NCBI GenBank assembly: GCA_964565925.1
Contig: CAZMGV010000001.1
Coordinates: forward strand, 430,618-494,617
DNA length: 64,000 nt
Source of the DNA: an uncultured bacterium
Lineage (GTDB): Bacteria > JAGRBM01 > JAHCIT01
Direction: 5' to 3'
Shown: in pieces, positions 6,795-62,701 of the stretch
How the letters are laid out: each line of letters starts with the position of its first letter
Numbering within the stretch: the first letter of the stretch is position 1
Made by a program: the position numbers and the translations under genes
The notes under the pieces: model-generated
Database searches by the model: none
What the model saw: only the letters and a program-made list of their open reading frames with translations
What the model was told of the DNA's origin: nothing

Positions 6795-8354
6795 ATGGGG
6801 ACGAAAAACCCTGTACTGCTTATCATCATGGACGGCTGGGGGCTGGGCAAAGACGAGCCCACCAATGCCGTGAAGGCCGCCAATACCCCGGTCGTGAACG
6901 CCCTTTTCGCCAACAATCCGTGGGTGCCGGTGAAAACCTCCGGCGAGGACGTGGGCCTTCCCAAGGGCCAGATGGGCAACTCCGAAGTCGGTCATCTGAA
7001 CATCGGTGCCGGCCGGATCGTTTACCAGAGCCTCTCGCTCATCTACCGCGACATTGAAAACGGCAGCTTCTTCGAGAACAGGGAACTGGTTGCGGTCTGC
7101 GACAAGGTGAAGGCCGAAAAGGGAGCCCTGCATCTCATGGGGCTCGTCTCCGACGGCGGCGTACACAGCCACGTCGATCACCTGGTCGCCCTGATGAAGC
7201 TCGCCAGGCAGCAGCATATCGAGCGGGTGTATATCCATGCATTCCTGGACGGGCGCGATACGGCCCCCAAGAGCGCTCTGGAGTTCATCCAGACGGTTGA
7301 AACGGCCATCAAGGCGTTGGAAATCGGACGCATCGTCACCGTATCGGGCCGGTTCTACGCCATGGACCGTGACAAGCGCTGGGACCGCCTGAAGCTGGCC
7401 TATGACGCCATGGTGAGCGGCCGCTCCGACTTTGTTGCCGGCTCGGCGCAGGAGGCGGTCGTCGCCGCCTACGCTCGCGGCGAAACCGACGAGTTCGTCA
7501 AACCCACGATCATCTGCAACGAAAAAAAGAACTTCATCGGCCAGATCAACGACCGCGACGGCGTGATATTTTTCAACTTCCGTGCAGACCGTGCGCGCCA
7601 GATCTCCCGCGCGCTGACGGACCCGAAGTTCCAGGAGTTCGACCGGGGCCGGGTACCGAAGCTGAGCGGGTTCGTCTGCTTCACCGAATACGACGCGACG
7701 CTGAAGCTCCCCTATGCGTTCACCAACGAGGAGCCGAAGAATACTCTCGGTGAAATACTGTCGAGATCGAAGCTGCTGCAGTTGCGGGCCGCCGAAACGG
7801 AAAAGTACGCCCACGTGACCTACTTCTTCAACGGCGGACAGGAAAAGGTGTTCGAGGGCGAGGACCGGATCATGGTGCCCTCCCCCAAGGACGTGAAGAC
7901 GTACGACCAGAAGCCGGAGATGAGCTGCGCCGAACTGACCGACAAGGTGATCGAGGCGATCCAGAAGAAGGATTATTCCTTCATCGCGCTCAACTACGCC
8001 AACTCCGACCAGGTGGGGCATACCGGCGTGCTGCCGGCGGCGATCCAGGCGAACGAGGCGATGGACAAGTGTCTCGCCCGCCTCGTCCCTGCCGCCAAGG
8101 CCAAGGGCTACAACGTCATCATCACCGCCGATCACGGCAACTCCGAGCAGATGCTCGACACCGCGACGGGCCGCCCCTACACGCAGCATACGACCAATCC
8201 GGTCGCTTTCATTCTGGACTCCGCGGGCGGCCAGAAGCTGGAGCTGCGCGAAGGCGGACGCCTGAGCGACATCGCACCGACGGTGCTGGATCTTCTCGGC
8301 ATCAAGCCGCCGCCCGAGATGAGCGGCAAGACCCTGATCGTTCATGGCGGTTGA
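6795..8354 (+). CDS. gpmI: 2,3-bisphosphoglycerate-independent phosphoglycerate mutase
   Basis: LLIIMDGWG...GNSEVGHLNIGAGR...ITADHGN are iPGM metal-site motifs. 519 aa. Confidence 0.9.
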   Translation: MGTKNPVLLIIMDGWGLGKDEPTNAVKAANTPVVNALFANNPWVPVKTSGEDVGLPKGQMGNSEVGHLNIGAGRIVYQSLSLIYRDIENGSFFENRELVAVCDKVKAEKGALHLMGLVSDGGVHSHVDHLVALMKLARQQHIERVYIHAFLDGRDTAPKSALEFIQTVETAIKALEIGRIVTVSGRFYAMDRDKRWDRLKLAYDAMVSGRSDFVAGSAQEAVVAAYARGETDEFVKPTIICNEKKNFIGQINDRDGVIFFNFRADRARQISRALTDPKFQEFDRGRVPKLSGFVCFTEYDATLKLPYAFTNEEPKNTLGEILSRSKLLQLRAAETEKYAHVTYFFNGGQEKVFEGEDRIMVPSPKDVKTYDQKPEMSCAELTDKVIEAIQKKDYSFIALNYANSDQVGHTGVLPAAIQANEAMDKCLARLVPAAKAKGYNVIITADHGNSEQMLDTATGRPYTQHTTNPVAFILDSAGGQKLELREGGRLSDIAPTVLDLLGIKPPPEMSGKTLIVHGG

Positions 8355-8418
8355 CCGGGCTTCCGGCCGGGCCAGCCAGTCCGGTACGTCCGGCTGGAAC
8401 CGGATTTTCCATCCGGCC

Positions 8419-9033
8419 ATGTCCTACTTCCGGAGACGGCGCCTTGCCCGTTTTCTCGCCGCATACCCCGGCCTGCCCGAAATGCAGGTACTCGACATCG
8501 GCGGCACGCCGCAGATCTGGGAAATCCTGAAAGCCGAGTTCGGCACATTCCCGAAACGGGTAGTGCTTCTCAATCTGGAGCCGCTGGCCGACGTCCCGCC
8601 GGGCTACGAGTCGGTCACCGCGTCGGCGCTCGACATCCCGTTTCCCGACAGGGCGTTCGATCTCTCCTTCTCGAACTCGGTAATCGAGCACGTCGGCACT
8701 CCGGCCGATATGGCGAAGTTCGCCAGCGAATGCCGCCGGGTCGGCCGTTCGATTTACCTGCAGACGCCCAACCGGTGGTTCCCGGTCGAACCCCATATCC
8801 TGACCGTCTTTCTGCACTGGCTCCCGCAGAAGCTCTACCGGAACCTGTCGTTCCTGTCGCTGCGGCGGCTTTTCTACCTGGGGGACCCGGACGGGTTTTA
8901 CCGGATTCTCGATACCACGCGGCTGCTCTCGGCGGCCGATGTCGCCCGGTTGTTTCCCGATCTGGCAGGAAACCTGGCACGGGAAAAACTGCTCGGACTC
9001 ACCAAGTCTTTCGTGATCACCGACCGGAAGTAG
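8419..9033 (+). CDS. class I SAM-dependent methyltransferase (Methyltransf_11-like)
   Basis: VLDIGGTPQ (motif I), FDLSFSNSVIEH and SIYLQTPN motifs. Start placed at the internal ATG (MSYFRR) to avoid overlap with gpmI. The longer ORF begins at 8344. Confidence 0.6.
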   Translation: MSYFRRRRLARFLAAYPGLPEMQVLDIGGTPQIWEILKAEFGTFPKRVVLLNLEPLADVPPGYESVTASALDIPFPDRAFDLSFSNSVIEHVGTPADMAKFASECRRVGRSIYLQTPNRWFPVEPHILTVFLHWLPQKLYRNLSFLSLRRLFYLGDPDGFYRILDTTRLLSAADVARLFPDLAGNLAREKLLGLTKSFVITDRK

Positions 9034-10257
9034 TTACGCGGCGGCAGTCCGCGTGAGGCGGCCGAACCAGACCGCACTGATGACGAGCGGTATGCAAATC
9101 GTTGCCGCCAGCCAGATCTGCTGTTCCATTGCGCCGAACCAGAAGGCGGCGGCTCCGATCAGGACCCCGTGACGCACCCATTCGAGCGGCGCCGCCCAGG
9201 ATTTCCCTTCAAACAGCCCTCCCCAGACCACGGTTGTCAGGATAATCATTACCCCGATCGCCGCCTGAACCCAGAGCGGCAGCCCGTCCTTGAACAGCTG
9301 GAGCGAGGTAATACCCGCGCCAATAACCACGAAATGCGAATCCACATATTTCTTGTAGGCCTTGGGAAACTCGGTGTCCCACTTGGTGAACTTGCCGGCG
9401 TCGACGGGCGGTGCCTTCTTCGGACCGCCCAGATCGGCCGGGTTCCACTCGGGATTAGCGAACCAGACCCATAATTTATCGGTGAACTTTTTCGTCTGCA
9501 CCGACCGGTCCCACATCTCTTTCCAGTAGTCGAAGTTCGCCCACGCGGGGTTCCAGCTCGCGTACGGCTTCACTGTCCCGAAGACCGGTGCGGCGCCTTC
9601 AGGTTCAAACGTCCCGAACATCCGGTCCCAGATGATCAGGATACCCGCGTGATTGCGGTCGATGTATTCCGGGTTGATCCCGTGATGGACCCGGTGATGG
9701 GACGGCGTATTCATCACCGACTCGTACCAGCCGGGAAGCCTGTCCACCGTCTGTGTGTGAATCCAGAACTGGTAGAGAAGGCTGATGGCGATATTCCCCG
9801 CGAAGACGAGCGGCGGGACGCCCAGCAGCGCCAGCGGGAAATAGATCGGCGTCGCGGCGAACCCCTGGAACCATGACTGCCGCAGCGCCACCGCCAGATT
9901 GTAGTCCTGACTCTGGTGGTGGACGACATGAAGCGCCCACAGAACGTTGATCTCGTGGCTCAGACGGTGGAACCAGTAGTAGAGAAAATCGACGCCGAAA
10001 AACCCGAGTATCCAGGCCGCCGCCGGATATGGCTCCAGATCGATCAGCCGGTACTGGCTGTATACCCAGGCATACGCCATGAGCGACAGCAGGCCCAGGA
10101 ACACCCGGATGACTTCGGACCCGATACCGCAGCTCAGGCAGGCGATGGAATCGGCGTAGCGGTAGAGGCGCTTGCCCTGCTTGCGCATGACGAGCACTTC
10201 CACGCCGATAAGTCCGAAAAAAGCGGGCACCGCCAGCGCAATGGGGTCGAGTTTCAC
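9034..10257 (-). CDS. fatty acid hydroxylase superfamily / sterol desaturase-family membrane protein
   Basis: Histidine boxes HRLSHE, HVVHH and HHRVHHG within a hydrophobic region, plus a large C-terminal extension. Start assigned to the GTG (VKLDP...) 32 nt after the upstream gene's stop. The unbroken ORF runs to 10329. Confidence 0.65.
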   Translation of the reverse strand: MKLDPIALAVPAFFGLIGVEVLVMRKQGKRLYRYADSIACLSCGIGSEVIRVFLGLLSLMAYAWVYSQYRLIDLEPYPAAAWILGFFGVDFLYYWFHRLSHEINVLWALHVVHHQSQDYNLAVALRQSWFQGFAATPIYFPLALLGVPPLVFAGNIAISLLYQFWIHTQTVDRLPGWYESVMNTPSHHRVHHGINPEYIDRNHAGILIIWDRMFGTFEPEGAAPVFGTVKPYASWNPAWANFDYWKEMWDRSVQTKKFTDKLWVWFANPEWNPADLGGPKKAPPVDAGKFTKWDTEFPKAYKKYVDSHFVVIGAGITSLQLFKDGLPLWVQAAIGVMIILTTVVWGGLFEGKSWAAPLEWVRHGVLIGAAAFWFGAMEQQIWLAATICIPLVISAVWFGRLTRTAAA

Positions 10258-10288
10258 GCGAATGACTCCGTCAGGTCTTGATACCGGA

Positions 10289-11770
10289 TCATAGCCGCCA
10301 GCGGAACCAGAGAACCAGCACCACGACACCGATAATGTCCATGACGAGCCCCGTCCGGAACATCCGTTTCAGGGGGACTTCACCGGTCGCATAGACCATC
10401 GCATTCAGCGGGGTCGATACCGGCAGCAGGAACCCCAGTGTACAGGCGGCCGTGGCGGCGAGCATGAGAGTCCCCGTGGGAACCGAAAACGCACCCGCAG
10501 CCGCCGCGATAATCGGCGCGATGATGTTGGCGGATGCCGTGTTGGAGGCGAACTCGCTCATCACGACTGCGAGCACCACCGCCGCCGCCAGAATCAGAAC
10601 GGTCGAATCCAGCGGGAGCCGGGAGAACGCCGCGCTGATCACGCCCGACAGGCCGCTCTTCTCGATCAGCACGCCGATACAGAGTCCGCCGCCGTATAGA
10701 AAAACCGTATTCCAGTCGAGCACGGCGAAATCGTCCGCGGTGAGTGCCGGTTCACCTTTCTTCTGGCCGCCGATCATGAACAACGGGAAGGCGAAAAATA
10801 CCGGCACAAACGGTTCGGCAAACAGCCGGTCCAGCATCGACGAAGCGCCCTCTCCCACGAGCTCAAGCGCCTGGATCGCCGGAGGGACAATCCAGCCCAG
10901 AATCGTGAGGGCGAGCATGGCGAGTGTCCACTTTTCATTCCGCCCCATGGGACCCAGCGCGTCCAGCTGCTCACGGGCAAACGACGGATCGAGCTTCAGG
11001 GTCCGGCATTCCTTCGCAATCTGCCGGTCGAGCCAGGCGCAACCGAGCAGCCAGATAACGATCGCCGGCGGCGATACCGCCGCGAACCAGTCGAAAAAGG
11101 TCACCTTCGCGCCGGTGATCCGTTCGAGCTGTCCGATCCCGATGAGGTTCGGGGGCGTGCCGACCGGTGTCATCAGGCCGCCGATGCTCGCCGAAAAAGC
11201 ACAGGTGAACGCCAGCGCAAACCCGAAGTCGCGGGTGGCGTCCTTCCCGGCGCCCGCACGCACCCGCGCGATGATGCTCATGGCGATGGGCAGCATCATG
11301 GCGCAGGTGGCCGTGTTAGACACCCACGCCGAGATGCCGAAGTTCACCGCCGACACGGCCCAGAAAACGAGCCGTGGCGAGTTCCCGATGGCCGGCAGCG
11401 ACAGTACGCTGTAGGCGATCCGGCGCGAGAGGCCATGTTTCTCGATCGCGTGCGCGATCAGGAAACTGCCGATGAACAGGATAATGATCTTGTCGGCCAG
11501 CGGGTTGAAGGCTTCCTTCATCGGGACGATACCGGCGGTGACAGCGACTGCCGTCCCGACAATCCCGGGGATAGCCAGCGGGACGGCCTCGGTCAGCCAG
11601 AGCATGATGACGGCGGCAAGGATCCCCAGCATCCGGGCGGCGCGGGGTTCCAGCGCGGACTGCGCCACAAGCCAGACCGCTATCCCTGAAAAAATCGAAA
11701 TGAGCACCCACAGGGGAGCCGCCGATCGGGGCGGATCCTCAGCATCAAGAATGAGTTTTACCTCGCTCAA
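10289..11770 (-). CDS. DASS (SLC13) family anion:Na+ symporter
   Basis: 493 aa polytopic protein with the duplicated SNTATCAMMLPI / SNTASANIIAPI motifs characteristic of divalent-anion sodium symporters. Confidence 0.7.
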   Translation of the reverse strand: MSEVKLILDAEDPPRSAAPLWVLISIFSGIAVWLVAQSALEPRAARMLGILAAVIMLWLTEAVPLAIPGIVGTAVAVTAGIVPMKEAFNPLADKIIILFIGSFLIAHAIEKHGLSRRIAYSVLSLPAIGNSPRLVFWAVSAVNFGISAWVSNTATCAMMLPIAMSIIARVRAGAGKDATRDFGFALAFTCAFSASIGGLMTPVGTPPNLIGIGQLERITGAKVTFFDWFAAVSPPAIVIWLLGCAWLDRQIAKECRTLKLDPSFAREQLDALGPMGRNEKWTLAMLALTILGWIVPPAIQALELVGEGASSMLDRLFAEPFVPVFFAFPLFMIGGQKKGEPALTADDFAVLDWNTVFLYGGGLCIGVLIEKSGLSGVISAAFSRLPLDSTVLILAAAVVLAVVMSEFASNTASANIIAPIIAAAAGAFSVPTGTLMLAATAACTLGFLLPVSTPLNAMVYATGEVPLKRMFRTGLVMDIIGVVVLVLWFRWRL

Positions 11771-11782
11771 TCGTTCGTCCGT

Positions 11783-13180
11783 TCAGGACCCGGATAATCC
11801 GGCCGCAGGCCCGCCCAGCCGCGTGACCGGTGCCGACGGTGCTGTCGGAGGAACCGGCGCCGGAACCGGCTGCGGAGGCGGCGTCTTCCGCAGACTGTCC
11901 TGATCGTCCTGGATGATCTGGAGCATCCATTCCCAGAGATTATTGGGCTCCGACGAACCGGCGCCTGGCGGAATCGGCGGGGCTTCGCCCTGCTGCCACT
12001 TGCGCATCGTCTCCGTAATCAGCGGTTCCTTGTCGATGTCGTCGTACGAGAAGATCACGACTCCGTCGGGGTCAGCCTTCCCGGCCGTATCCAGTTCCCG
12101 GTGGAGCGCCGCCCGGTCGGCGCCGATGTCCCACGCACCGAGACCGACCCACACCCGGGGACTGCCGCGTGACCGCTCCGGACGGGCGGCTACGGCGCTC
12201 TTGACGAGATAGCGGTAGAACCGCTCGTCACGCGAATAGCTCATGGAAACAACGAAGTTCACGGTGCCGTCTTCGAGCCAGCGCCGCCAGTCCTGAAACG
12301 ACGACAGGTACGCCCGGTCCGCCCAGGCGACCACGGCCGCCGACAGCTGCATCTTCTCCGGCAGCGTATCGCGGGTTTTCTTCACGAGCCCGTTCACCTG
12401 TTCCCGCCGCCAGACTGCGAAATCGCGGGCCACATCACCCGTGGTACCCTTGAACGGTACGTCCTTTTCTTTTTCCGCCTTGAACCGCTCGATGGCTGTC
12501 TCGCCGAATCCGAACTCAATTCCACGGGCGAGGTTAGGAGCCGGCTTCGTCGGAATCGCATACGGGTAGCGGACGAAATCCAGATGTACCCCGGCGAGCG
12601 ACGGATATCTGGTGGCCAGTTCACGGACCGCCTTCAGAACAAAGTCATTCGCCTCCGGCGACGAGGGGTCGAGCCACACGCCCGGCGTATCGAGTTCGGC
12701 CTCCAGCGCGTCCTTACCCTCGCCCAGATATGTCACGATGTTGCGGCCTTCGTTATCGCGTGTGATTGCCGTATCGGGCAGCATCGCCATCGCCCTGGCG
12801 GACGGCTTCGTGCCGAGGTTGTAGACATTCACCCACGCATGAACCCGGATACCTGCCGCGCCGGCCCGGGCGAGCAGTTCGCCCAGCGGATCCCGGGCCC
12901 CCGGAATCGCATGCTCAAATATGTCCGACGCCCACCATGCCCGGCCGCCGCGGAACACCTGAACGAACAGGTCTTTGGCCCCGGCCGCCCTGGCGCGGTC
13001 GAGCAGTGTGTCCAGTTTTTCGTCCGACTGCAGCGGCCGGCTGTCGCCCTCCGCCGGGACCCAGATTCCCAGCTTCGGCCTGGCCGATCCCAGCGCGCAG
13101 CCTCCGGTGACGGACAATGCGACGGCCAGCGACACGGCGGCCGCGAGTTGGCGTGTTTTCAAAGTAATCTTCCCCGGCAT
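11783..13180 (-). CDS. lipoprotein, glycoside-hydrolase-like family 10 (GHL10/DUF187-type)
   Basis: Signal peptide with lipobox (LSVTGGCA). Central (beta/alpha)8-like region resembling GHL10 proteins. Pro-rich C-terminal tail. Confidence 0.5.
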   Translation of the reverse strand: MPGKITLKTRQLAAAVSLAVALSVTGGCALGSARPKLGIWVPAEGDSRPLQSDEKLDTLLDRARAAGAKDLFVQVFRGGRAWWASDIFEHAIPGARDPLGELLARAGAAGIRVHAWVNVYNLGTKPSARAMAMLPDTAITRDNEGRNIVTYLGEGKDALEAELDTPGVWLDPSSPEANDFVLKAVRELATRYPSLAGVHLDFVRYPYAIPTKPAPNLARGIEFGFGETAIERFKAEKEKDVPFKGTTGDVARDFAVWRREQVNGLVKKTRDTLPEKMQLSAAVVAWADRAYLSSFQDWRRWLEDGTVNFVVSMSYSRDERFYRYLVKSAVAARPERSRGSPRVWVGLGAWDIGADRAALHRELDTAGKADPDGVVIFSYDDIDKEPLITETMRKWQQGEAPPIPPGAGSSEPNNLWEWMLQIIQDDQDSLRKTPPPQPVPAPVPPTAPSAPVTRLGGPAAGLSGS

Positions 13181-13188
13181 GTTGGTTC

Positions 13189-13806
13189 TCAGCTTGTGGG
13201 CTCGGTTTTGGACGGAGCGTTCAGCCAGTTGAGCAGCCTTGAAAACCGTCCCGAAAACCGCGGACCGGCGAAATCCTGCAGGGCGCCCATCGCCCCCTGG
13301 ATGGTCTCCAGCAGGTCGTTATCGCCCGCCCAGTGTTCCTTCAGGATCCCGTGGTCGATCCGGTTCACGATCCGGTCCACGACGAACAGGACGATCAGGA
13401 TGTCGTCGATGTAGCCGATCGGCCCGAGCAGCATCTCGGCCGCCAGATCGATCGGCAGGGCGAAGTAGGCGATGGCGCCGCCGATCAGCACCTTTTCCCG
13501 GAGCGCCACCCGCGAATCCATCATCAGCTTCACCAGCAGGTGCACGAAATCGGGCAATAGCAGGATCAGATCGGCGAGTTTGGGCGTGACGTTCTTGGCC
13601 CGGACCCAGTCGCGCAGCTGGGTACGCCAGCGGACATAGTAGTCCGCATCGGCGGTCGGGAAACGGGGCTTCTTTTCGTGATGCGGACCGGGCGGGGCGC
13701 CGTCGGCGCCTGCGTCCGCGCCATTACCCGTCACTTCACGGGCGGTAGTCGGGACGACCTTGTGGGTTCGCTTACGGGTGGACCCCGGTGATTTCTTTTC
13801 CGTCAC
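13189..13806 (-). CDS. DUF1232 (YkvA-like) membrane protein
   Basis: Low-complexity N-terminus, then a hydrophobic segment and the PIDLAAEMLLGPIGYIDDILIV-type motif seen in DUF1232 proteins. The 5' end may be shorter than the ORF. Confidence 0.45.
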   Translation of the reverse strand: MTEKKSPGSTRKRTHKVVPTTAREVTGNGADAGADGAPPGPHHEKKPRFPTADADYYVRWRTQLRDWVRAKNVTPKLADLILLLPDFVHLLVKLMMDSRVALREKVLIGGAIAYFALPIDLAAEMLLGPIGYIDDILIVLFVVDRIVNRIDHGILKEHWAGDNDLLETIQGAMGALQDFAGPRFSGRFSRLLNWLNAPSKTEPTS

Positions 13807-15025
13807 AATGAGCAGAGGCTATCCGGGCGGAGGGCTCCGGGTAAAGCGCCGCTTCACGTTCGAAACGGACGGCGGCGTCCTTCTGGCCCAGCTTCTTCAG
13901 GGTCCGGTAGTGGGACCTGACTGCGTCGGCAAACGTGGGGAATTCGGTGTAGGTCACGCCGAACTCTTCAGCGGTCTTTTTCACGATCGGCGCCAGGTTG
14001 CGGTAGTGGATGTGGCAGATGCGCGGAAACAGGTGATGCTCGATCTGGCAGTTCAGGCCGCCGGTGATCCACTGGGCCAGGAAACCGTCCACGGAGAAGT
14101 TCGCCGACGTGCGGCACTGGTGCGCGGCAAACGATTCGGCGATCCGGCCATCGGTAAGCGACGGATAGACGGTGCCCTCCACGAGGTGACCGAGCTGGAA
14201 GATGAACGCCAGCATGAACCCCGCCACGAGGTGCATCGCCACGAATCCGATGGCGACTTTCCAGAACGGGAGCCCGAGAAGGGCCATCGGCAGGCCGAAG
14301 ATCATCAGGTAGTAACCGATCTTGCCGCCGAACAGGATGGCGATCTCGGAGGCCGCGGGTTTCGGCTTCTCGTAGATCACCAGCTTGTCCTGGAACATGT
14401 GACGGAAATCCTTCTTCGTGACCCAGACGAGCGACGTCAGCGTATACAGGAACCAGGCGTAGACGTGCTGGTGCTGGTGGACGTCCCGGTGGGGAGCGTT
14501 CGGCCGGAACCGCATCAGGTCGGCCGGGTAGAGATCGCCGTCGGCCTCGGGGATATTCGTATACGTGTGGTGGACGACGTTATGCGAGATGCCCCAGTTG
14601 TAGGCGTTGGCGCCGATCAGTGTGAATGAATGCGCAAACAGGCGGTTCACCCAGGGAGTGCCCGACAGGCCGCCGTGGCTCGCATCGTGGCTGACATTGA
14701 ACCCGATTCCCGAGACGAAAAAACCCATGCAGATTGCCATGAGCAGCATGACCGGCTCACTGAACCATCCGGTGAGGATGAGCGCGAACAGGCCCAGATA
14801 GCCGCCCAGATAGAAAGCGACTTTCGCCATCATGAACGGGGTCCAGAACTTCGTCAGATGATTTTCCGCGAAATAGGCATCAACCCGCTGTTTTACAGCG
14901 GTCGCGAAATCACAGTCACTGGAACTGCCGAAACCAACCTTGACGGCCAAAAGAGGACTCGTTTCTGTTCCGCATCCAGGGGACTTGCTGGCGGGGGCAG
15001 CCTTCGTATTAACGAGGCGGGCCAA
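13772..15025 (-). CDS. membrane fatty-acid (acyl-lipid/acyl-CoA) desaturase
   Basis: Three His boxes (HDASH, HNVVHH and QIEHHLFP) with four hydrophobic spans. Non-ATG (TTG) start, so the precise 5' end is uncertain. Confidence 0.75.
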   Translation of the reverse strand: MARLVNTKAAPASKSPGCGTETSPLLAVKVGFGSSSDCDFATAVKQRVDAYFAENHLTKFWTPFMMAKVAFYLGGYLGLFALILTGWFSEPVMLLMAICMGFFVSGIGFNVSHDASHGGLSGTPWVNRLFAHSFTLIGANAYNWGISHNVVHHTYTNIPEADGDLYPADLMRFRPNAPHRDVHQHQHVYAWFLYTLTSLVWVTKKDFRHMFQDKLVIYEKPKPAASEIAILFGGKIGYYLMIFGLPMALLGLPFWKVAIGFVAMHLVAGFMLAFIFQLGHLVEGTVYPSLTDGRIAESFAAHQCRTSANFSVDGFLAQWITGGLNCQIEHHLFPRICHIHYRNLAPIVKKTAEEFGVTYTEFPTFADAVRSHYRTLKKLGQKDAAVRFEREAALYPEPSARIASAHCDGKEITGVHP

Positions 15026-15159
15026 TGCCGAACGGCCATGGTTTTAATGAGTTCAGAGGCCCGCCGCAAGCATTTAGAAGGCCTTCTACCGTCTTTTCAC
15101 AATGTGACCTGGGTCATTTAAATAGCTGAAATCAGGCGCTATTTCCGGCGAAAACCCGC

Positions 15160-16050
15160 CTAGACACCCTTGCCCCGGCGGACCAGCTCTTCCTGGAGCA
15201 TCCCCTCAAGCCGTTCTTTAATACTTGCCTGCACTTCCGCCAGCGCGTCCTCATCGTCCGCCTTCCAGGGCGGGAGGCGCACTTCGATAGGCTCGCCGAT
15301 CACGAACCGGAGTTTTACCGGCAGCGGCAGGGGGCCCAGCCCCAGGTAGAGCGGCATCTTGTATTTATCGCTACCAATCAGTTTCTGCAGATAGACGTTG
15401 TTGTCGAGCAGACTCACGTAGGCGTTATCGCCTCCGATGCTCGCCACCGGAACGATCGGTACGCCGGCGGCGATCGCGCACCGGATAAACCCGTACGACT
15501 TGTCCCAGTAGAGGGCATACCGGTCGCGGGTGGGCTTGAGCGCCTCGCGGGCGCCGCCCGGATACGACAGCACGAGATTGCCCTGCTTCAGGAGTTCGAT
15601 GGCGTTCTCCCGCTTGCCGTAGATCGCCCCGACCCGCTGCAGCCACTGGCGGTAGTACGGCATCCGGATCGCGTTCTTGTCCACGGTGGGCCGGATAAAA
15701 CGGCCGGTGACGTGGTAGACGCGCTCGAACAGGAACAGCGAGTCGAGCGCGAGTATCGCGTGGTTGGAGACCAGCACCGCGCCCTGCCCCTCGCCCGGCA
15801 GGTTTTCGGCGCCGGAGAGTTCCGGACGGAACCAGATCTTTGCGAACGGTTCGATCCGGTCGTACTGCTCGCGCGCGAACTCAGGGTCGAAGAGATCGAG
15901 CCGGTCGTCGTCGGCCTCGTTGAGCGGAGCGCCGACCATTTCGCTGAACTCGCGGATCTTGTCGTCCACGGACACGTCGGGAGACAGCAGCCGCTCGCCC
16001 GCCTTTTTCAGCTCCCGCCAGATGTCCCGTATGGGGTTGTCGTCGCTCAT
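15160..16050 (-). CDS. PlsC-like glycerolipid acyltransferase (lysophospholipid acyltransferase family)
   Basis: VLVSNHAILALD contains the H(X4)D acyltransferase motif. Downstream PGGARE-like motif. About 296 aa. Confidence 0.65.
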   Translation of the reverse strand: MSDDNPIRDIWRELKKAGERLLSPDVSVDDKIREFSEMVGAPLNEADDDRLDLFDPEFAREQYDRIEPFAKIWFRPELSGAENLPGEGQGAVLVSNHAILALDSLFLFERVYHVTGRFIRPTVDKNAIRMPYYRQWLQRVGAIYGKRENAIELLKQGNLVLSYPGGAREALKPTRDRYALYWDKSYGFIRCAIAAGVPIVPVASIGGDNAYVSLLDNNVYLQKLIGSDKYKMPLYLGLGPLPLPVKLRFVIGEPIEVRLPPWKADDEDALAEVQASIKERLEGMLQEELVRRGKGV

Positions 16051-16084
16051 GCTGCCTCAAGCTAGCACGCCTGCCGGGCCCGCC

Positions 16085-17233
16085 CTAGACGCCCCGTTCG
16101 GGCGGCGGTTCCGTTTCCACCGATTCGAAAAACACCTTGATGCCGAAGATGAGCGCGATCACGACGCAGGTACCGGCGCCAGCCAGCAGGAGGTCGCCGC
16201 CCGTCCAGCCGGCCGCGCGGACGATAAACCCGGTTACGAGCAGCGCCGCCCCGCCCGTGAGCGCGCGGATCGAGAGCACCGCCGCGGCCCCCGGAGACCC
16301 GGCTGCGCCGAACGCGTGGCCGAGCAGCAGCGGCAGCACGAAGCCCAGAATGATCCCGTGGTGAGCGGCGCGGCGGATGTCGTCGCCGCCTGTCTGCTGG
16401 TAGCGGTACAGGAGCACGGTCGAGGTCAGGAACAGGATGCCGATGGCCCAGGCGGTGAACTGCTCGGAGGACCTCCTGGGCAGAAGCGTGGCCAGATGCA
16501 GGAGGCTCAGGACGCCGAGCATCAGGGTCGGGACCGCGAGGTGGTCGGCCTGCCCGTAGAGGGAGAGCACGGCGCTCGAGACCGACGCCAGTACGGCCAG
16601 GATCAGTTCGAGAGCCGGCTGCCAGCCGAGTATGTGCCCCGGCTCGCCCGGCGACGGGAAGTGATCGACCGACAGGGCCGCCAGCAGCAGCCCGCCGAAC
16701 ACGCCGAGCATCGTGTGGGCGGATTTGTATTCGAACCGGAATCCGCCGTTCCACATGACGAGCGCCATCCAGGCAGCCCCCCCGAGGAGCAGCAGCGCAG
16801 CGGTGCCATGCATAAGCGCCCCGCTGTGGGGTCTCGGGCGGCCGGAGTCGGGCTTGAACCCGCCCGTGTGCATGAACGCCCGCCAGCAGAGCGCCCCGTA
16901 GAAGAGCAGCGCCAGCAGCAGGCACACAGGGCCGGCGGCGAGCAGTTCGTAGCGCCACAGAAGCCCCGCCGAGAACGCGGCCAGCGTGCCGTGCGTGAGG
17001 CCGAGCAGCGTAAACCCCGCCGCCCGCACCGGAAATACGCCGCCCATGCGTTCGGAAAACAGGCCCATCCAGAGATGCAGGATACCGCCGAGAATTGCCG
17101 CGTGGATGTGGAACTTTAGCGCGAAGTGAGGGACACCGTCCGCGCCCACGATGGCGATCGTGAAGCCGAGCATGGCCGCGGCGAGCAGCCAGAACAGTCC
17201 GACAGTGACAAACAGCCGTTCGGTCCGGGTCAT
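16085..17233 (-). CDS. polytopic integral membrane protein, function unknown
   Basis: About 12 predicted hydrophobic spans with many conserved His. Positioned within the lipid-enzyme gene string. No confident family assignment. Confidence 0.45.
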   Translation of the reverse strand: MTRTERLFVTVGLFWLLAAAMLGFTIAIVGADGVPHFALKFHIHAAILGGILHLWMGLFSERMGGVFPVRAAGFTLLGLTHGTLAAFSAGLLWRYELLAAGPVCLLLALLFYGALCWRAFMHTGGFKPDSGRPRPHSGALMHGTAALLLLGGAAWMALVMWNGGFRFEYKSAHTMLGVFGGLLLAALSVDHFPSPGEPGHILGWQPALELILAVLASVSSAVLSLYGQADHLAVPTLMLGVLSLLHLATLLPRRSSEQFTAWAIGILFLTSTVLLYRYQQTGGDDIRRAAHHGIILGFVLPLLLGHAFGAAGSPGAAAVLSIRALTGGAALLVTGFIVRAAGWTGGDLLLAGAGTCVVIALIFGIKVFFESVETEPPPERGV

Positions 17234-17239
17234 GGATGC

Positions 17240-17884
17240 TCAGGCCTTCCTCATGCCCACGGTGACGGAGGCCAGTTCCTGTTTCCAGAGCAGGTCGACG
17301 TTGGAGAGCGAGACCGCCTCCAGGCATTTGCGGATGTGCTCGGCCGCCATCCGGGGATTTCTCCCCTTCTGCCGGTCGGGGACTGACGGAGCCGGACTCA
17401 AAGATACCGACTGGCGGTATTCGCCCAGGCGCCGCACGTAGTCGGCTTCCAGCTCCTTCGACGACGCCGCCAGTTCCGTTCCCCAGAACAGCATCCCCCC
17501 CTCGCGCAGTTTCGCGGAGAGGCGGCCGATCAGCAGCAGCGGCATGTCGGCCGTGGCGCTGTCGGCGACAAACGGCGCCCAGATCACGTGGAACCCGCCC
17601 GGAAGTTTCGTCTCCCAGGCGCCGGAGAACCACTCGGCCCGGATGAACCGCACGCGCCCGGCGATGGCGGCCGTGGCGGCGCGAGCCGCCTGCTCCGACG
17701 GTTCGTCGCGGCAGAACACAATGAACCGGGCGTTCGGGCGAAGCCGCGCGAACTCGGGCGCCCAGAGGGGCCCCAGACCGTTCTCGAACAGTTCCAGCAC
17801 AAGCACCGGCTCATCCCCCGAATAGGGAAAGTGCGAGACGATCAGTTCGGGGGTGAGACCCGGATACGGGGATTTGAAGTCCAA
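17240..17884 (-). CDS. hypothetical protein (weak Rossmann/methyltransferase-like pattern)
   Basis: 6-nt gap to the downstream membrane gene. VLVLELFENGLG and RFIVFCRD faintly resemble MTase motifs I/II. Assignment is weak. Confidence 0.4.
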   Translation of the reverse strand: MDFKSPYPGLTPELIVSHFPYSGDEPVLVLELFENGLGPLWAPEFARLRPNARFIVFCRDEPSEQAARAATAAIAGRVRFIRAEWFSGAWETKLPGGFHVIWAPFVADSATADMPLLLIGRLSAKLREGGMLFWGTELAASSKELEADYVRRLGEYRQSVSLSPAPSVPDRQKGRNPRMAAEHIRKCLEAVSLSNVDLLWKQELASVTVGMRKA

Positions 17885-17917
17885 CAGGGAGCCGCCTGTG
17901 CGTTCGTTCAGCGCCGG

Positions 17918-18199
17918 TTAGTGATAAGTGAAGCCGGGGCGCATCTTCGGTTTCGAGTCGCCCAGCAGCGCGTCCAGCAGAATGACCGCCGCCGCGCCGA
18001 AAATCGCCGCCGCGAGCAGCCCCAGGACCGCGATTCCCGCCGTCGCAAAGAGCAGCGGCGCGGCCACCGCGATCTGCGCCGGCTCCATCCGCCGGAGCCG
18101 TTCCCACAGGTCCGCCAGCGTCCGCCCCTCGGTCTCGCCGCCGGGGTTCTGGTCGGGGTCCGGCATCATGCCATTCAGGATCTCGTCGAAACGGGACAT
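17918..18199 (-). CDS. small membrane protein (93 aa)
   Basis: One long hydrophobic helix (IAVAAPLLFATAGIAVLGLLAAAIFGAAAVILL). First gene after the long ORF-free region. Confidence 0.35.
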   Translation of the reverse strand: MSRFDEILNGMMPDPDQNPGGETEGRTLADLWERLRRMEPAQIAVAAPLLFATAGIAVLGLLAAAIFGAAAVILLDALLGDSKPKMRPGFTYH

Positions 18200-19508
18200 A
18201 GCGAATCGCCTCCGGTGACCGGACCATATGATTTATGGGGAGCCGGGGGCAAGGGCGGGCGTACCTGACGAAAATCGCAGGTTTAATACTCACCACACCC
18301 CCGGCCGCTTTCGCGGCCTTCCCCCTCTCCGTGACTACGGAGAGGGGGCTGGGGGAGTGGTGCGGTACCCTAAACCCCTGTTGCCGGCAGCGGGTTTAGG
18401 GCTATTCAGTTTTCAAACACCTATCGCGGCATGCGTGGTTTCAGGCCACCGAGCCGCCTTTTCGGTTCCACCACTCGCTTTCCACCGGTCTGCGGGCGCC
18501 TGGTCTGTGCGCACCCCGGCTCGTGGAGCGAGAAGGGGGGTGCGACAGCCGTAGCGGCGCTAAACCGGAAGATCCATCGAATGGCGGGAACCTGCCCTCT
18601 CCGGGGAGACCCGCCCCTGCTCACGTGGTGGACCCACGCGACAGCGGCGCGACCGGGAAGGACTTCACTGGATCCAGGGCCCGCTCATCACGGTCGCCCG
18701 GACCTGAGCTCACTTCCGGCTTCTGAAACGGAACCCTTTCGGGTTCCGTCGTTTACCTCCGGGCCCCTTATCAGGACCATCGGGTTCGTCCGCCGGACGG
18801 AGACTTACCTTCACCCACTATTAATAGCGGCTATAAAAACGCGATCCAGAGCGTGGACCTAAATGGCCCTAAATGAGCCTAAATGAACCCATTTGACCCA
18901 AGTTTTTCAGCGTATTTTGCGAATCTACTGACGCTAGTTAAGACGTTAAATCTGACAACGGAACTCGCGGATCGAACTGAAGAATCTCTGAATCGGGACC
19001 ACCGGGACGGACCCGCAAAAACCGCCAAAATTATTTTCCCATTAACGCGACTTTTAATCTTCAGATTCCGGAATCCCGAGCGGCTCCAGCGGGTTAGCGT
19101 TTTCAGGGCCTTTCACAGCTTGGTCCATTTAGGGCCAAAACGGCGGTTTTATGCGGAAGGAGGGGTTAATATAAATGGCAAGTCGAACTCGCCCCTGCCC
19201 GGACGGAATCCGAAAACCGCTCGTCCTGAGGAGGCTTGCTGTGCAAGCCGTCTCGAAGGACGCGGTTCGAGCCGTTCGACCCTTCGAGACGCTTCGCTCC
19301 TCAGGGCGAACGGCTGTGCGCCCCGGAGCGGCGGGTGAGTCCTGAAACCCCTCCTCCACCTCTCCGTTTGACTTGTCCCGTCAAAAGGCCAATCCTTGCA
19401 GGTGTCCGGTTGCTTATTATCTAGGCTGCACAACCTTTAAGCAATCCGGTTAAATGCCGATGTAACCACGATATTGCCGCGATAAACAGGCAATGAGTCC
19501 GCCCGGAA

Positions 19509-31638: not shown

Positions 31639-32727
31639 TCATGTGCCCGCCAACTGCCTCTCATCAAAAAGCTGTTCTGGCTTCCGCCATCCGTTTGGGT
31701 ATTCAACTACAGGAGGGAATCCATTGGTTTCGTCCGAAACGCAATTGACGAATGTTTCCTTAGAGATACCTTGCACGTTGCTGAAACCTTGGTATCTAAA
31801 TTGACACATATAAAATCTTGCATTTGTTAAGTTGGCACCGGCGATCGATGTTGAATCCATAGTCACGCCGCTCATTGTGCAATCAGTAAGGTTCGAGCCG
31901 TTGAAATCGACTCCGTACATTACCGCACCAATGAAACTAGCCCCAGTAAAATCGCAATTAGTTAATTTCGCTAACGCCATAATGCATTGTGAAAATTGCA
32001 CATTACGGAAACATAAGCCGTCGAGACGGCCATTCACGATCAGGACTTCTTTTAATTCTGGGCGATATCCGATCGGGTCATTCGCAATATTTCGTCTACC
32101 AATCACAGTTAAGGCGAACTTGATCGCTTCCGGCATTTCGGTTTCAAAAATACTATCTGAATAAACGTCGACGTAATTCAATTCAGTGAGTACTGCACCA
32201 GAGGGTCGCTTGAAAACCTCATGATGGATGTCATCCCATATTCTCCGGTTCCACGACGACTTCCGTCGCACGAATGACGAGAGCACTTCCATGGATGGGA
32301 CATGAAAATCCGTAGCCGATTTTGCGATATGTTCAATTACAAAAATTGCTCCGATTACTTCATCGATTTTATCGCTCGTCAGCATCCGAACGGCTGACTG
32401 AAATTGCTCCGATAATAGTCGACGCTCAGATAACCGATTGTTTTCGACGGCAACGGCAGCCTGGCTAAGTGCGGCAGCAGCCTGCTGCTCCGCAGCTTTT
32501 ATCCGTCTCCAAGCAAACACGAAACCGATTAGTGCAGCTATTACTCCAAGGACTTTCAAGTAGAAATCCATGAAGTCTTTCAGCGTGATTTTTTCGGAAT
32601 CGACCGGCCCGATTATGGACTGCAAAACGAACCAAAGAAGAAGAACGACGCAGATCAAGAAAAACCCGACCAACAAGGTCTGGGATAAATCGATTTTGAC
32701 GTTATTTTGATCTCTTTGCTCTACCAT
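31639..32727 (-). CDS. membrane-anchored pentapeptide-repeat protein (low-GC island)
   Basis: N-terminal TM helices, a central domain of unknown type, then C-terminal A(D/N)LXX pentapeptide repeats (CDFTGASFIGAVMYGVDFNGSNLTDCTMSGVTM...). Local GC about 47% against about 64% in flanks. Confidence 0.5.
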   Translation of the reverse strand: MVEQRDQNNVKIDLSQTLLVGFFLICVVLLLWFVLQSIIGPVDSEKITLKDFMDFYLKVLGVIAALIGFVFAWRRIKAAEQQAAAALSQAAVAVENNRLSERRLLSEQFQSAVRMLTSDKIDEVIGAIFVIEHIAKSATDFHVPSMEVLSSFVRRKSSWNRRIWDDIHHEVFKRPSGAVLTELNYVDVYSDSIFETEMPEAIKFALTVIGRRNIANDPIGYRPELKEVLIVNGRLDGLCFRNVQFSQCIMALAKLTNCDFTGASFIGAVMYGVDFNGSNLTDCTMSGVTMDSTSIAGANLTNARFYMCQFRYQGFSNVQGISKETFVNCVSDETNGFPPVVEYPNGWRKPEQLFDERQLAGT

Positions 32728-32852
32728 TGCCCATCACTCACGTATCCAAGCTGCTTACGAGGCTGAAACGATATCGCGATCGGTGACTCCGTAATGAAAC
32801 GCAAATAGGTGCGTAAGCAATGCCTAACTAATTCCCAGGTAAAATAGGCATT

Positions 32853-33221
32853 TCAGGAAGGGCTACGTTGCATAAAGCCGAAATCCATAATCCACCGATC
32901 TGGGTCGAAATGGCCTACGAGGTCTCGATTCGCAAGATTAAATACAAAGTCCTGAAGCAACCCTTCATAGCCCGCTTCAAACCCAATATCTTCGCGATTT
33001 TCTACAACCTCGGCCCAGTCGCGTAGATAATCCTCAGTAATGTCACGATCCGTCAATCGCATGAGAAGATTTCTCGCGTCCTTACGAGTGAATAGAACTA
33101 AATCAGCCCTCGAATCCCAACCAAACGATGCCAACTCCTCTTCAATTTCCGAAGGCGGCCTTCGTAAATTGATCAACTCCTCAAGAAGGAGCGTGCGCCT
33201 TGCTAAATCGATGCCATTCAT
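32853..33221 (-). CDS. hypothetical acidic protein (122 aa) in low-GC island
   Basis: Start overlaps the stop of the upstream 82-aa ORF (ATGA). No recognisable domain. Confidence 0.35.
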   Translation of the reverse strand: MNGIDLARRTLLLEELINLRRPPSEIEEELASFGWDSRADLVLFTRKDARNLLMRLTDRDITEDYLRDWAEVVENREDIGFEAGYEGLLQDFVFNLANRDLVGHFDPDRWIMDFGFMQRSPS

Positions 33222-52841: not shown

Positions 52842-54731
52842 ATGCCTTTCACCCCTGAACAACGCCGCCAGCTGCTCGCCCTCGGACAGGCGATTATTCC
52901 GGACGGACGGATCTTTCCGGGTGTGACGGAACGTTCCGCCGAACGGGTGGAGAACTATCTCTCCCACGGCGGGCTGGCGGCCGGTTTCGCGCGGCTGCTC
53001 CAGACGCTCGACCTCTTTACCCGCGCCCGCAAAGGCGTCGGGTTCGCCGACCTGTCCCGTGAAGAGCGCGAAGAGCTGCTCACCGGCTGGAGTTCCGCCG
53101 GTGTCGCCGGCCGGGCGTTGTTCATGGGCCTGACGTCCCCCTTCAAGGCGACCCACTTCGACGACCCCGAGGTCTACACCGCCATGGGGTGCGTCTATGA
53201 ATTTCACGGCAAGCCCGAGCCGCCCGAGCGGTGGCGCCAGCAGGTGATGGCGGGCGATTCGATCTCCGAAGGTGAAGAGATCGAGTGCGACATCGTCGTC
53301 GTCGGCACGGGCGCCGGCGGGGCCGTGTTCGGCAAGGAGCTGGCCGAGAAGGGTTATGCCGTCGCCTTCATCGAAGAAGGCGAATGGCGGGACCGCGACG
53401 CCTTCACCGGCCGTTCGCTCGAGATGCACCGCAAGCACCACCGGGGCGCCGGAGTCACCGGGACCGTTGGCAACGCGTTTATCGCCGTGCCCATGGGCCG
53501 TCTCGTGGGCGGCTCCACCGCGATCAACACCGGCACCTGCTTCCGGACGCCGGACTGGATTCTCGACAAATGGGTCCACGAGTTCGGCCTCAAGGGGTTC
53601 GAGCCCGAGACGATGCGCCCCTATTTCGAACGGGTGGAGCGGGAACTCCAGGTGGAGGACCCCGACCCCAAATACCTGGGCGGCATTCCGAGGGTCATCG
53701 CGCGCGGCTGCGACAAGCTCGGCTGGTCGCACAGGGTCATCAGGCGCAACGCCCCCGGTTGCGACGGTTCCGGCGTGTGCGACTTCGGCTGCCCGACCGA
53801 GGCGCGCCGCTCCACCAATATTTCGTATATTCCTCCGGCGCTTAAATGCGGCGCGGTCCTCTATACCGGCCTTGCCGCCAAACGGGTGCGGATCGAGAAC
53901 GGCAAGGCCGTGGGGATCGAGGCCGTCACCCGCGACGGCAGGGTGAAGAAGTTCCGCTCGCGCGTCACGGCGCTCGCCTGCGGGACGATGCTCACCCCGG
54001 TGCTGCTCGCCGATCAGGGGATCTGCAACAGTTCCGGCTGGCTCGGTCGCAATCTTTCGGTGCATCCGTCGGGCAACGCGTCGGCGCTCTTCGACGAGGA
54101 GATCCGCGCTTACTCGTCGATTCCGTCCGGCTACACCTGCGACCAGTGGCACAAGGACGGCATCCTGATGAACGGCGCCGGGGCGCCGCTCGACATGACC
54201 CCCATGATGTTCCCGTTCATCGGCCGCAAACTGATGGAAGTGATGGAGGCGGCCGACCGGGTCGCCGGGTTCGGCTATCTCATCACCGACAGCAGCAACG
54301 GGCGGCTCGTGAGACTGCCGGGCGGGCGGCGGATCTGGTACAAGAACCTTCTGGAAAAAGACCTGCGCGACCTCAAGACCGGCCTGATCCGGACGGTCGA
54401 GGTGTTCCAGGCGGCCGGCGCCAAAGAGATCTATCCGATGCTTCCCGGCCACGACATCATCAGGACCGACAAGGATTTCGACAAGCTGCGGAAAGCCGAC
54501 ATCAAGCCCTGGCAGTGGACCCCGGTGGGTTTCCACCCCCTGGGGACGACCCGCATGGGCCCGAGCCGCAAGGATTCGGTACTGGATCTGGACCACCAGA
54601 GCTGGGACGTGCCGAACCTCTATGTCGTGGACGGCGGCGCCGCGCCCTCCGCCATCAGCGTGAACTCCCAGGTCACGATCATGACCCTCGCCACACGGGC
54701 GGCATTGCGGCTGGCCGAGAAACTCGGCTGA
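52842..54731 (+). CDS. GMC-family FAD oxidoreductase fused to an N-terminal gluconate-2-dehydrogenase-subunit-3-like domain of about 140 aa
   Basis: DIVVVGTGAGGAVFGKELAEKG Rossmann motif begins only at about residue 147. C-terminal GMC_oxred_C region (HPLGTTRMG, PNLYVVDGG). Confidence 0.7.
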   Translation: MPFTPEQRRQLLALGQAIIPDGRIFPGVTERSAERVENYLSHGGLAAGFARLLQTLDLFTRARKGVGFADLSREEREELLTGWSSAGVAGRALFMGLTSPFKATHFDDPEVYTAMGCVYEFHGKPEPPERWRQQVMAGDSISEGEEIECDIVVVGTGAGGAVFGKELAEKGYAVAFIEEGEWRDRDAFTGRSLEMHRKHHRGAGVTGTVGNAFIAVPMGRLVGGSTAINTGTCFRTPDWILDKWVHEFGLKGFEPETMRPYFERVERELQVEDPDPKYLGGIPRVIARGCDKLGWSHRVIRRNAPGCDGSGVCDFGCPTEARRSTNISYIPPALKCGAVLYTGLAAKRVRIENGKAVGIEAVTRDGRVKKFRSRVTALACGTMLTPVLLADQGICNSSGWLGRNLSVHPSGNASALFDEEIRAYSSIPSGYTCDQWHKDGILMNGAGAPLDMTPMMFPFIGRKLMEVMEAADRVAGFGYLITDSSNGRLVRLPGGRRIWYKNLLEKDLRDLKTGLIRTVEVFQAAGAKEIYPMLPGHDIIRTDKDFDKLRKADIKPWQWTPVGFHPLGTTRMGPSRKDSVLDLDHQSWDVPNLYVVDGGAAPSAISVNSQVTIMTLATRAALRLAEKLG

Positions 54732-59019: not shown

Positions 59020-59229
59020 CCGGGAATCCCAAAAACCGGGGCCGTTTGGTCCGGCGGCTCCGCTCAGGCTGAGCGGCAGAGGCAGCCCCGGTTCCTTTGC
59101 AGTCCATCCCCTTCCCCCCGGCCCCTACCCCGTCTACGCTGACGCCCGTGTCAGTATATGTGTCCGCCTGCGGCGGGCGTATGCGGACCTGCAGCGAATG
59201 ACTTTCGATTGACCGAGGGGGAATTTTCC

Positions 59230-60201: not shown

Positions 60202-60219
60202 GACGGTTCATCCTGTGGA

Positions 60220-61005: not shown

Positions 61006-61071
61006 TACCTTCGTCGCCGATACATTTGCCGGCGCCCTTGCCCGCCGCCGGATCGTCACCATTTTAAAGGC

Positions 61072-62453: not shown

Positions 62454-62701
62454 CGGGCGGACCTCCGGAGCCGTGACTATAGCCGGTCCTGACCGGGTCT
62501 TCAGCGGACACAAACCGGGGAAATTCCAGGGTTGACTCGACCGTCAGAATTCATCTTATTCCATAATAATATCAGCATCTTATAAATTGATCATTGACTT
62601 ATATTACTTTGTAATACAAATTAATACCCATCGAGGCGCCGGAGGCCATTCAAGTTACCCCGGCAGCCCAAAATCCAAAGGGACCACAGAAGGGAACCCA
62701 C

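Follow-up and report, generated by a model that had tools for sequence, protein, structure and literature searches.

The nine co-directional minus-strand genes (here g1 to g9) at positions 9034–18199 of the analyzed window, a 64,000-nt stretch of contig CAZMGV010000001.1 (GCA_964565925.1) from an uncultured bacterium, are best explained as a lineage-specific mosaic of three units rather than as one pathway, a reading to which we assign a probability of about 0.6. The units were a constant four-gene block (M1, g1–g4), a single desaturase gene (g5), and a second block (M2, g6–g8, joined by g9 in two lineages). This explanation is preferred because the blocks occur apart from each other in related lineages and because their association vanishes around distant homologues. 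The first-pass annotation of the stretch had described the run as one putative membrane-lipid remodelling locus. Three of the nine products (those of g4, g5, and g9) indeed belong to lipid-modifying families, and a general lipid-tailoring label still fits these three genes; the notion of a single nine-gene locus was not sustained, the modules being separable in relatives. The accompanying remark that such a gene set departs from textbook operons stands. Of greatest interest in the region is M1, with its g3 protein, an orphan by sequence that is predicted to have the fold of a heme-copper oxidase (HCO), while the lipid enzymes of the run are ordinary new members of large known families.

Modular synteny

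The synteny comparison covered five related uncultured lineages (A–E), with loci fetched around homologues. The window itself represents lineage A and carries g1–g9. In lineage B (L009 and L015), a Dus gene was followed by g1–g8 in the same order and then by the contig end, while lineage C (L003; GCA_026129095.1) carried an AMP-binding (acyl-CoA-ligase-like) gene, g1–g4, g6–g8 and an acyl-CoA dehydrogenase gene, with neither g5 nor g9. Lineage D (L006 and L016) had Dus and g1–g4, followed by convergent unrelated genes. Lineage E (L077 and L079) had a PAS-GAF-HD gene, g6–g9 and the same iPGM-dksA-rsfS flank as the window, with no g1–g5.

M1 was contiguous in all four lineages having g3 (A–D), with flanks that differed. 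On the 5' side of g1 lay Dus in the window, L006 and L009, but the AMP-binding gene in L003; past g4, the window and L015 continued with g5, L003 with g6, and L006 with the convergent unrelated genes. Orthologues of g1 (93 aa, 57–63% identity) were located 5' of g2, and g4 was located 3' of g3 at a distance of 6–57 nt, in each of these four lineages. Only three other clusters of g3 were found in a collection of 5.8 billion proteins (70, 64, and 59% identity). No conserved motif was detected upstream of g1 across the four lineages.

M2 exists without M1: g6–g8 were present in three of the four g3-bearing lineages and also, in the absence of g1–g5, in L077. Orthologues in L003, L015, and L077 were 50–60% identical for g6 (located 5' of the GHL10 gene in each), 56–69% identical for g7, and 65–68% identical for g8. 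The last gene, g9, was found in two lineages, the window and L077, where its orthologue was 76% identical and located 3' of the DASS gene; it was absent from L003, and the L015 contig ended after g8. The desaturase gene g5 was confined to the window and L015, at the same position and with 75% identity, and is an insert between M1 and M2 in the two closest lineages only.

Further away in sequence space the association disappeared, with no other cluster genes near distant homologues of g4 (61 genome loci) or of g7 (about 78 metagenome loci). Orthologues of g4 at about 50% identity followed alaS in a recX-alaS setting that lacked g1–g3, and only one g4-type gene was seen per related genome in the scan. 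These were the nearest outgroup orthologues of g4, and the recX-alaS-acyltransferase order was kept on at least three contigs (L010, L012, and L013), which suggests a housekeeping role for that acyltransferase clade. For annotation, the lesson is that co-directional genes taken for a "lipid locus" on no other ground can turn out to be a patchwork.

Coding potential and gene boundaries

All nine open reading frames (ORFs) were recovered where the first-pass annotation had placed them, with GC contents at the third codon position (GC3) of 0.77–0.87, as in the real genes of the window (61–68% GC). Overlapping alternative ORFs, such as 16062–17633 (523 aa), had a GC3 of about 0.5 and are spurious. 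With synonymous sites saturated, dN/dS ratios relative to three orthologues were 0.27–0.35 for g1, 0.26–0.39 for g2, 0.16–0.24 for g3, and 0.11–0.15 for g4; g1, g2, and g3 are thus constrained genes despite the lack of Pfam matches. The domain calls that had been made for g4–g9 were all reproduced by Pfam and NCBIfam profile searches, and the descriptions of g1 as a small membrane protein (one hydrophobic helix), of g2 as weakly methyltransferase-like (through its orthologue profile) and of g3 as a 12-TM, His-rich membrane protein were equally borne out.

The run had been described as having gaps of 6–134 nt. The tight packing was confirmed, with two amendments. When the longest-ORF starts are used, g5 overlaps g6 by 35 nt and g8 overlaps g9 by 41 nt. 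The start of g5 supported by its orthologue is a TTG at position 14,950 (longest ORF to 15,025), a start codon kept in L015, and because of this shift the g4–g5 spacer measures 209 nt, not 134 nt. For g9, the orthologue-backed start is a GTG at position 10,257 (longest ORF to 10,329). A GGAGG motif was located 9 nt 5' of the g1 ATG. Consensus scans of the region for promoters and terminators were uninformative for a GC-rich organism, and Rfam and tRNA scans of the window gave no match.

The orphan membrane protein g3 and its partners

The third gene of M1, g3 (16085–17233, minus strand), encodes a His-rich protein of 382 aa with 12 predicted helices, and is an orphan by sequence. A profile of its four orthologues searched against 1.84 billion representative proteins retrieved itself only, and no match up to E 10 was obtained in Pfam, including COX1 and NnrS, or among Protein Data Bank (PDB) sequences. 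Kinship with NnrS or COX1 at the sequence level was accordingly rejected. A Foldseek search with the structural model gave a probability of 1.0 and TM-scores of 0.61–0.65, the closest structures being CcoN (3MK7) and NorB (4XYD). The protein is therefore predicted, from its model, to have the twelve-helix fold of HCO subunit I.

The 16 His residues of g3 included 11 that were invariant in the four orthologues. When mapped by depth, using model helix boundaries and the positive-inside rule, five invariant His would occupy the outer third of helices 2, 6, and 10 (H42, H44, H173, H291, and H292) and five near the cytoplasmic face (H53, H191, H246, H306, and H136 in a loop), with H81 in helix 3. 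Helix 2 thus combines an invariant H42-x-H44 with H53, and helix 10 combines H291–H292 with H306, at membrane depths that in the model fit heme-ligand positions. Assuming in-register numbering, helix 6 has the invariant H173 and helix 7 (residues 205–226) is free of His in all four orthologues, so that the three-His CuB/FeB site, formed by a helix 6 His and the helix 7 His-His pair, appears incomplete in the modeled protein. The active site of HCOs is considered almost invariant, and its His residues are kept in all HCO families except gNOR (PMC11214002); g3, missing the helix 7 pair, would accordingly stand outside every described HCO family.

Compared with CcoN and NorB, g3 showed no sequence similarity, was 60–90 residues shorter, and lacked His in helix 7. 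Canonical heme ligands are a His of helix 2 and an H-x-H in helix 10; g3 has HH in helix 10 and carries in helix 2 an H-x-H-x4-GG sequence that resembles the canonical helix 10. It further differs in having an extra inner layer of invariant His, and in having as operon partners a methyltransferase-fold protein and an acyltransferase instead of an adjoining cytochrome c or cupredoxin. An hhalign comparison with Escherichia coli CyoB was not significant (probability 0.1); its sole local alignment, also not significant, paired KFHIHAAILGG of g3 helix 2 with AHFHNVIIGG of CyoB helix 10 (H419 and H421). A 3 × 3 comparison of four-helix units between the two proteins by hhalign yielded no significant pairing. 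That the three-fold pseudo-symmetric scaffold was cyclically re-registered is a lead, not a result.

No HCO genes were found in the fetched loci, and no electron-entry subunit (cupredoxin subunit II, CcoO/NorC-type cytochrome c, or CxxCH protein) was found among the neighbors of g3. What precedes g3 are g1 (17918–18199, minus strand; 93 aa), the first gene of M1, with one transmembrane helix in a hydrophobic segment at residues 56–74 and no Cys, and g2 (17240–17884, minus strand), encoding a soluble protein of 214 aa; neither had a Pfam or NCBIfam match. The profile of the four g2 orthologues matched CysG/BelI-type O-methyltransferase structures (9FD3, 9FCD, and others; E 1.4e-6) over residues 25–200, pointing to a class-I methyltransferase fold. 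In the g2 family, VLELxxxx without a conserved Gly takes the place of the LDLGAGTG of those methyltransferases, and the acidic ribose ligand is not kept. Because this Gly-rich S-adenosylmethionine (SAM) motif I is degenerate, g2 is probably not an active methyltransferase and is better read as a probable non-catalytic methyltransferase-fold subunit. If cofactor binding by g3 holds true, a protein always co-located with an acyltransferase and having an HCO fold without the helix 7 pair would widen the functional range of this scaffold.

Enzymes of lipid-modifying families

The last gene of M1, g4 (15160–16050, minus strand), encodes a protein of 296 aa that matched both PF01553 (Acyltransferase; 1.7e-13, 51 bits) and PF03982 (DAGAT; 3e-11, 43 bits) over their cut-offs. 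Its motif is N-H-x5-D/E, not H-x4-D, and N96-H97 and P164-G-G-A-x-E169 were invariant among 22 homologues, including a vertebrate TMEM68-like protein. The vertebrate MGAT/DGAT (TMEM68-like) protein matched g4 at 4e-15 and was only 28% identical to it; a homologue in the next tier came from a metagenome-assembled genome of the Bdellovibrionota. These profile matches and motifs identify g4 as a predicted TMEM68/DGAT2-like acyltransferase of the LPLAT superfamily. TMEM68/DIESL itself has a bacterial-AGPAT-like fold and synthesizes triacylglycerol autonomously (PMC10482677). The bacterial protein shares with TMEM68/DIESL and DGAT2/MGAT the paired PF01553 and PF03982 match, the NH catalytic motif and the PGGAxE block; it differs in its bacterial origin, its 296-aa length, its NH-x5-D/E in place of the classical H-x4-D, and the lack of a TMX1-like regulator.

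Behind the long spacer lies g5 (13772–14950, minus strand; 392 aa), with FA_desaturase (PF00487; 1.9e-31) as sole Pfam domain, no cytochrome b5 domain, and the three His boxes HDASH, HNVVHH, and QIEHH. Its best NCBIfam match was DesB delta-10, at 29 bits versus a cut-off of 500. Meesapyodsuk and Qiu (2012; cited in PMC4728637) reportedly described the Gln that opens the third His box as a mark of front-end desaturases, and the cyanobacterial enzymes of this type are not known to carry a fused cytochrome b5. Judged by its His boxes, g5 is a putative membrane fatty-acid desaturase of the front-end (Q-x-x-HH) type. It resembles the cyanobacterial delta-6 DesD type in its three His boxes, in its box 3, where Gln takes the place of the first His, and in having no fused b5 domain, unlike the eukaryotic front-end desaturases, which carry cytochrome b5 as an N-terminal fusion.

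The terminal gene g9 (9034–10257, minus strand; 407 aa) matched FA_hydroxylase (PF04116) at 1.2e-28. At least 7970 homologues were found in a search of 5.8 billion proteins, and many, with thousands of bacterial proteins among them, were labeled "alkylglycerol monooxygenase" (AGMO) by JGI; those so labeled had 45–52% identity over 82–94% of the length. The residues essential in human AGMO are His 132, 136, 145, 148, 149, 201, 221, 224, and 225, together with Q162, D233, N235, Y236, W243, and D244 (PMC7911779). When matched by spacing, with two single-residue indels allowed, 14 of these 15 residues were kept in g9 (all nine His, Q162, D233, N235, W243, and D244), and Y236 was replaced by His. 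Domain, length and C-terminal extra helices were also alike, and g9 is thus assigned, on this residue signature, as a predicted AGMO/TMEM195-type di-iron membrane enzyme and not as OlsE. According to PMC7911779, AGMO is the sole known enzyme that cleaves alkyl ether lipids, and no characterized bacterial member was found in the literature searched. A bacterial AGMO-type gene beside a transporter and a desaturase gene would offer a convenient entry to bacterial ether-lipid turnover.

The first-pass annotation had likened the acyltransferase to OlsA or PlsC and the hydroxylase to OlsE, and had compared the run to ornithine-lipid-type pathways. The cluster and the Ols enzymes do have superfamilies in common, namely LPLAT (OlsA and the C-terminal part of OlsF) and FA_hydroxylase (OlsE), but the equivalog models were missed by about an order of magnitude in score: g9 scored 48.3 bits against OlsE (NF052566; cut-off 475), and g4 scored 18.8 bits against OlsF (cut-off 620), 17.9 against TIGR00530 AGP_acyltrn (cut-off 102.95) and 16 against GlsA (cut-off 260). 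No OlsB-type N-acyltransferase domain was present among the nine products, which matched no other aminolipid NCBIfam model either. Because of these scores and the missing OlsB-type gene, the ornithine-lipid analogy was abandoned, and with it the reading of g9 as OlsE-like; the NCBIfam scores likewise rule out assignment of g4 as a bona fide PlsC or as GlsA. No sequence relatives of g4, g5, or g9 were found in the PDB.

The second block, g6–g9

The M2 block begins with g6 (13189–13806, minus strand), a DUF1232 membrane protein (PF06803; 8.8e-10), followed by g7 (11783–13180, minus strand), a glycosyl-hydrolase-like 10 protein (GHL10, PF02638; 8.3e-17) with an N-terminal signal and a lipobox-like VTGGC, and by g8 (10289–11770, minus strand), a DASS-family anion:sodium symporter (TIGR00785, 256.7 bits versus a cut-off of 198.6; PF00939, 7e-56). 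In its GHL10 domain and lipoprotein-type N-terminus, g7 resembles the GHL10 lipoproteins such as E. coli YddW/DigH. DigH has a peptidoglycan-glycosidase role, and nothing ties g7 to lipids; none of the three products of g6–g8 has an evident lipid role.

Proposed functions and competing explanations

Under the mosaic reading, M1 would be a clade-restricted operon in which g1, g2, and g3 form a membrane complex, with heme and/or metal bound by the two layers of invariant His in g3. Such a complex may be a redox or gas-handling (O2/NO) component; because the helix 7 His-His pair is missing, it would not be a canonical O2/NO reductase. The g4 enzyme would transfer acyl groups to a lyso- or diacyl-glycerolipid. 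In two lineages, g5 was inserted behind M1; a promoter of its own within the 209-nt spacer probably drives it, and the enzyme would introduce a carboxyl-proximal (delta-5/delta-6-type) double bond into membrane acyl chains. In M2, g9 would cleave 1-O-alkyl ether glycerolipids into a fatty aldehyde and a glycerol derivative. The modules may plausibly share a theme, the O2-dependent remodelling of membrane glycerolipids, given two di-iron oxygenases, an acyltransferase, and the acyl-CoA ligase and dehydrogenase flanks in lineage C. Since the modules are separable, a single obligatory pathway is disfavored.

Several points weigh against the mosaic reading. The five lineages are fairly close to each other (g3 59–70% identical), and the conservation of g1–g4 could partly reflect shared ancestry, not selection. 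M1 adjoins M2 in three of the five lineages, and the L003 block is bordered by the AMP-binding gene upstream (7371–8903) and the acyl-CoA dehydrogenase gene downstream (15638–16792), hinting that the modules may be functionally linked. As to g3, its fold comes from AlphaFold models built on 4–6 sequences with moderate pLDDT (65–71), and the assignment of its His residues to helices presumes an in-register 12-helix alignment. By position, the L003 flanking genes tie the block to fatty-acid metabolism a second time, independently.

The strongest version of such a linkage, in which all nine genes are co-transcribed as one lipid-remodelling pathway comparable to ornithine-lipid or aminolipid synthesis, with the transporter and membrane proteins in its service, would account for the co-directionality and short gaps, for the same order of eight genes in lineage B, for the presence of three lipid enzyme families, and for the M1–M2 adjacency and lineage C flanks just mentioned. 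It is nevertheless very improbable: the OlsE, OlsF, GlsA, and PlsC models all remained far under their cut-offs, no OlsB-like gene was present, g9 bears the AGMO signature, the modules were found apart in L006 and L077, g5 sits behind a 209-nt AT-rich spacer with conserved motifs, and GHL10, DASS, and DUF1232 proteins have no known lipid role. A more serious rival, and the main one, although we still hold it to be unlikely, separates M1 from lipids altogether, g1–g3 being gas-handling or respiratory, g4 the housekeeping acyltransferase of the lineage, and the lipid theme of the region a coincidence. The HCO fold of g3, closest to CcoN and NorB, speaks for it, as do the approximately 50%-identical g4 orthologues in the recX-alaS context without g1–g3, the single g4-type gene per related genome in the scan, and the desaturase and AGMO genes that come and go independently. 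The His-free helix 7, which leaves the three-His CuB/FeB site incomplete (PMC11214002), the lack of a cytochrome c or cupredoxin partner, with g1 Cys-free and g2 of methyltransferase fold, and the position of g4 6–57 nt after g3 in all four lineages despite rearranged flanks argue otherwise.

Two further ideas concern the nature of g3 itself. It might be a degenerate HCO-fold scaffold without redox cofactors, serving as a transporter or in a lipid-binding or structural role, with His used for proton or metal-ion transport; we consider this improbable. Its small size (382 aa versus 445–560 aa for catalytic subunits), the absence of the canonical helix 7 HH pair and the lack of detectable sequence similarity to any HCO would agree with such a scaffold, but eleven His are invariant at 59–70% overall identity, five of them map, by the model-based depth assignment, to the outer third of the symmetry-related helices 2, 6, and 10, at the depth of HCO hemes and CuB, and helix 10 has an H292-x13-H306 pair. 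A 13-residue His spacing is typical of bis-heme helices (cytochrome b and ferric-reductase domains). A bolder proposal, only slightly less doubtful, sees g3 as a 12-helix protein of minimal size in which the CuB/FeB His pair was lost and a second His layer, on the cytoplasmic side, was gained (a possible trans-membrane di-heme or metal relay), maybe with cyclic re-registration (the helix 2 H-x-H-x4-GG). It would work with the dead methyltransferase-fold and 1-TM subunits and be coupled to a TMEM68-like acyltransferase instead of respiration, for example to supply or remove electrons or to sense O2/NO for glycerolipid remodelling.

Intergenic regions

The g4–g5 spacer (14951–15159, minus strand; 209 nt, AT-rich) was the only long spacer in the run and contained the inverted repeat TGACC-CA-GGTCA. 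Two of its segments, AAATGACCCAG and TTTGTGAAA, were kept in lineage B (L015), and the remainder diverged. No terminator-like site was found there by a consensus scan, which is uninformative for a GC-rich organism. From these conserved segments, the spacer probably holds a promoter or operator belonging to g5.

At the other end of M1, a 1.3-kb spacer (18200–19508) separates g1 from a divergent Dus gene, and the minus strand at 18150–18900 looked strongly RNA-structured, with several GC-rich hairpins bearing GAAA loops. The predicted folding energy of 18290–18860 (571 nt) was −301 kcal/mol on the minus strand, compared with −247 ± 7 kcal/mol for shuffled sequences (z −7.8; plus strand z −5.3), and 300-nt windows there reached z values between −5 and −6, the window-wide background being −0.8 ± 1.2. 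The 18150–18900 sequence had no match to Rfam, tRNAs, plasmids, or phages, the counterpart spacer in relatives was only 180–345 nt long and without similarity, and a Logan contig of the same organism broke inside the structured spacer. It could be a long leader of g1–g4, an unclassified structured RNA, or a repeat. A smaller block of excess structure was located at 19200–19500, by the Dus start (z −4.8 minus, −4.2 plus), and the plus strand at 19116–19278 had a sub-threshold match to the Rfam family LAGLIDADG-2 (21 bits, E 0.3).

Neighboring genes

The second hydroxylase and second desaturase reported elsewhere in the window were both present. The 261-aa FA_hydroxylase (60220–61005) and the desaturase (62702–63955), whose third box QVEHH is also of the front-end type, belonged to a scatter of lipid-type genes at 59158–63955 that further included a DUF7065/DUF7064 protein (59158–60201), with a PCMT gene and a class-I glutamine amidotransferase gene interspersed. 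Recent paralogy was rejected: the two desaturases and the two hydroxylases were only 27 and 28% identical, and the second copies are thus not recent duplicates of g5 and g9.

On the plus strand at 8344–9033, a gene for a 229-aa SAM methyltransferase (Methyltransf_11/23) converges on g9, its end abutting the g9 stop; it is missing from the equivalent place in L077, where iPGM comes straight after g9. On another contig (L078, 922–4264), a 67%-identical AGMO-type gene was found directly after genes for a TetR regulator and a GMC oxidoreductase, and a GMC oxidoreductase is also encoded in the window at 52842–54731; the alcohol or aldehyde released by ether-lipid cleavage could be a substrate of GMC enzymes. 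Finally, a low-GC island, probably acquired horizontally, lies at 31639–33221 (about 50% versus about 63% elsewhere; GC3 0.48); it encodes a pentapeptide-repeat protein of 362 aa and has an ORF of 122 aa without a Pfam match.

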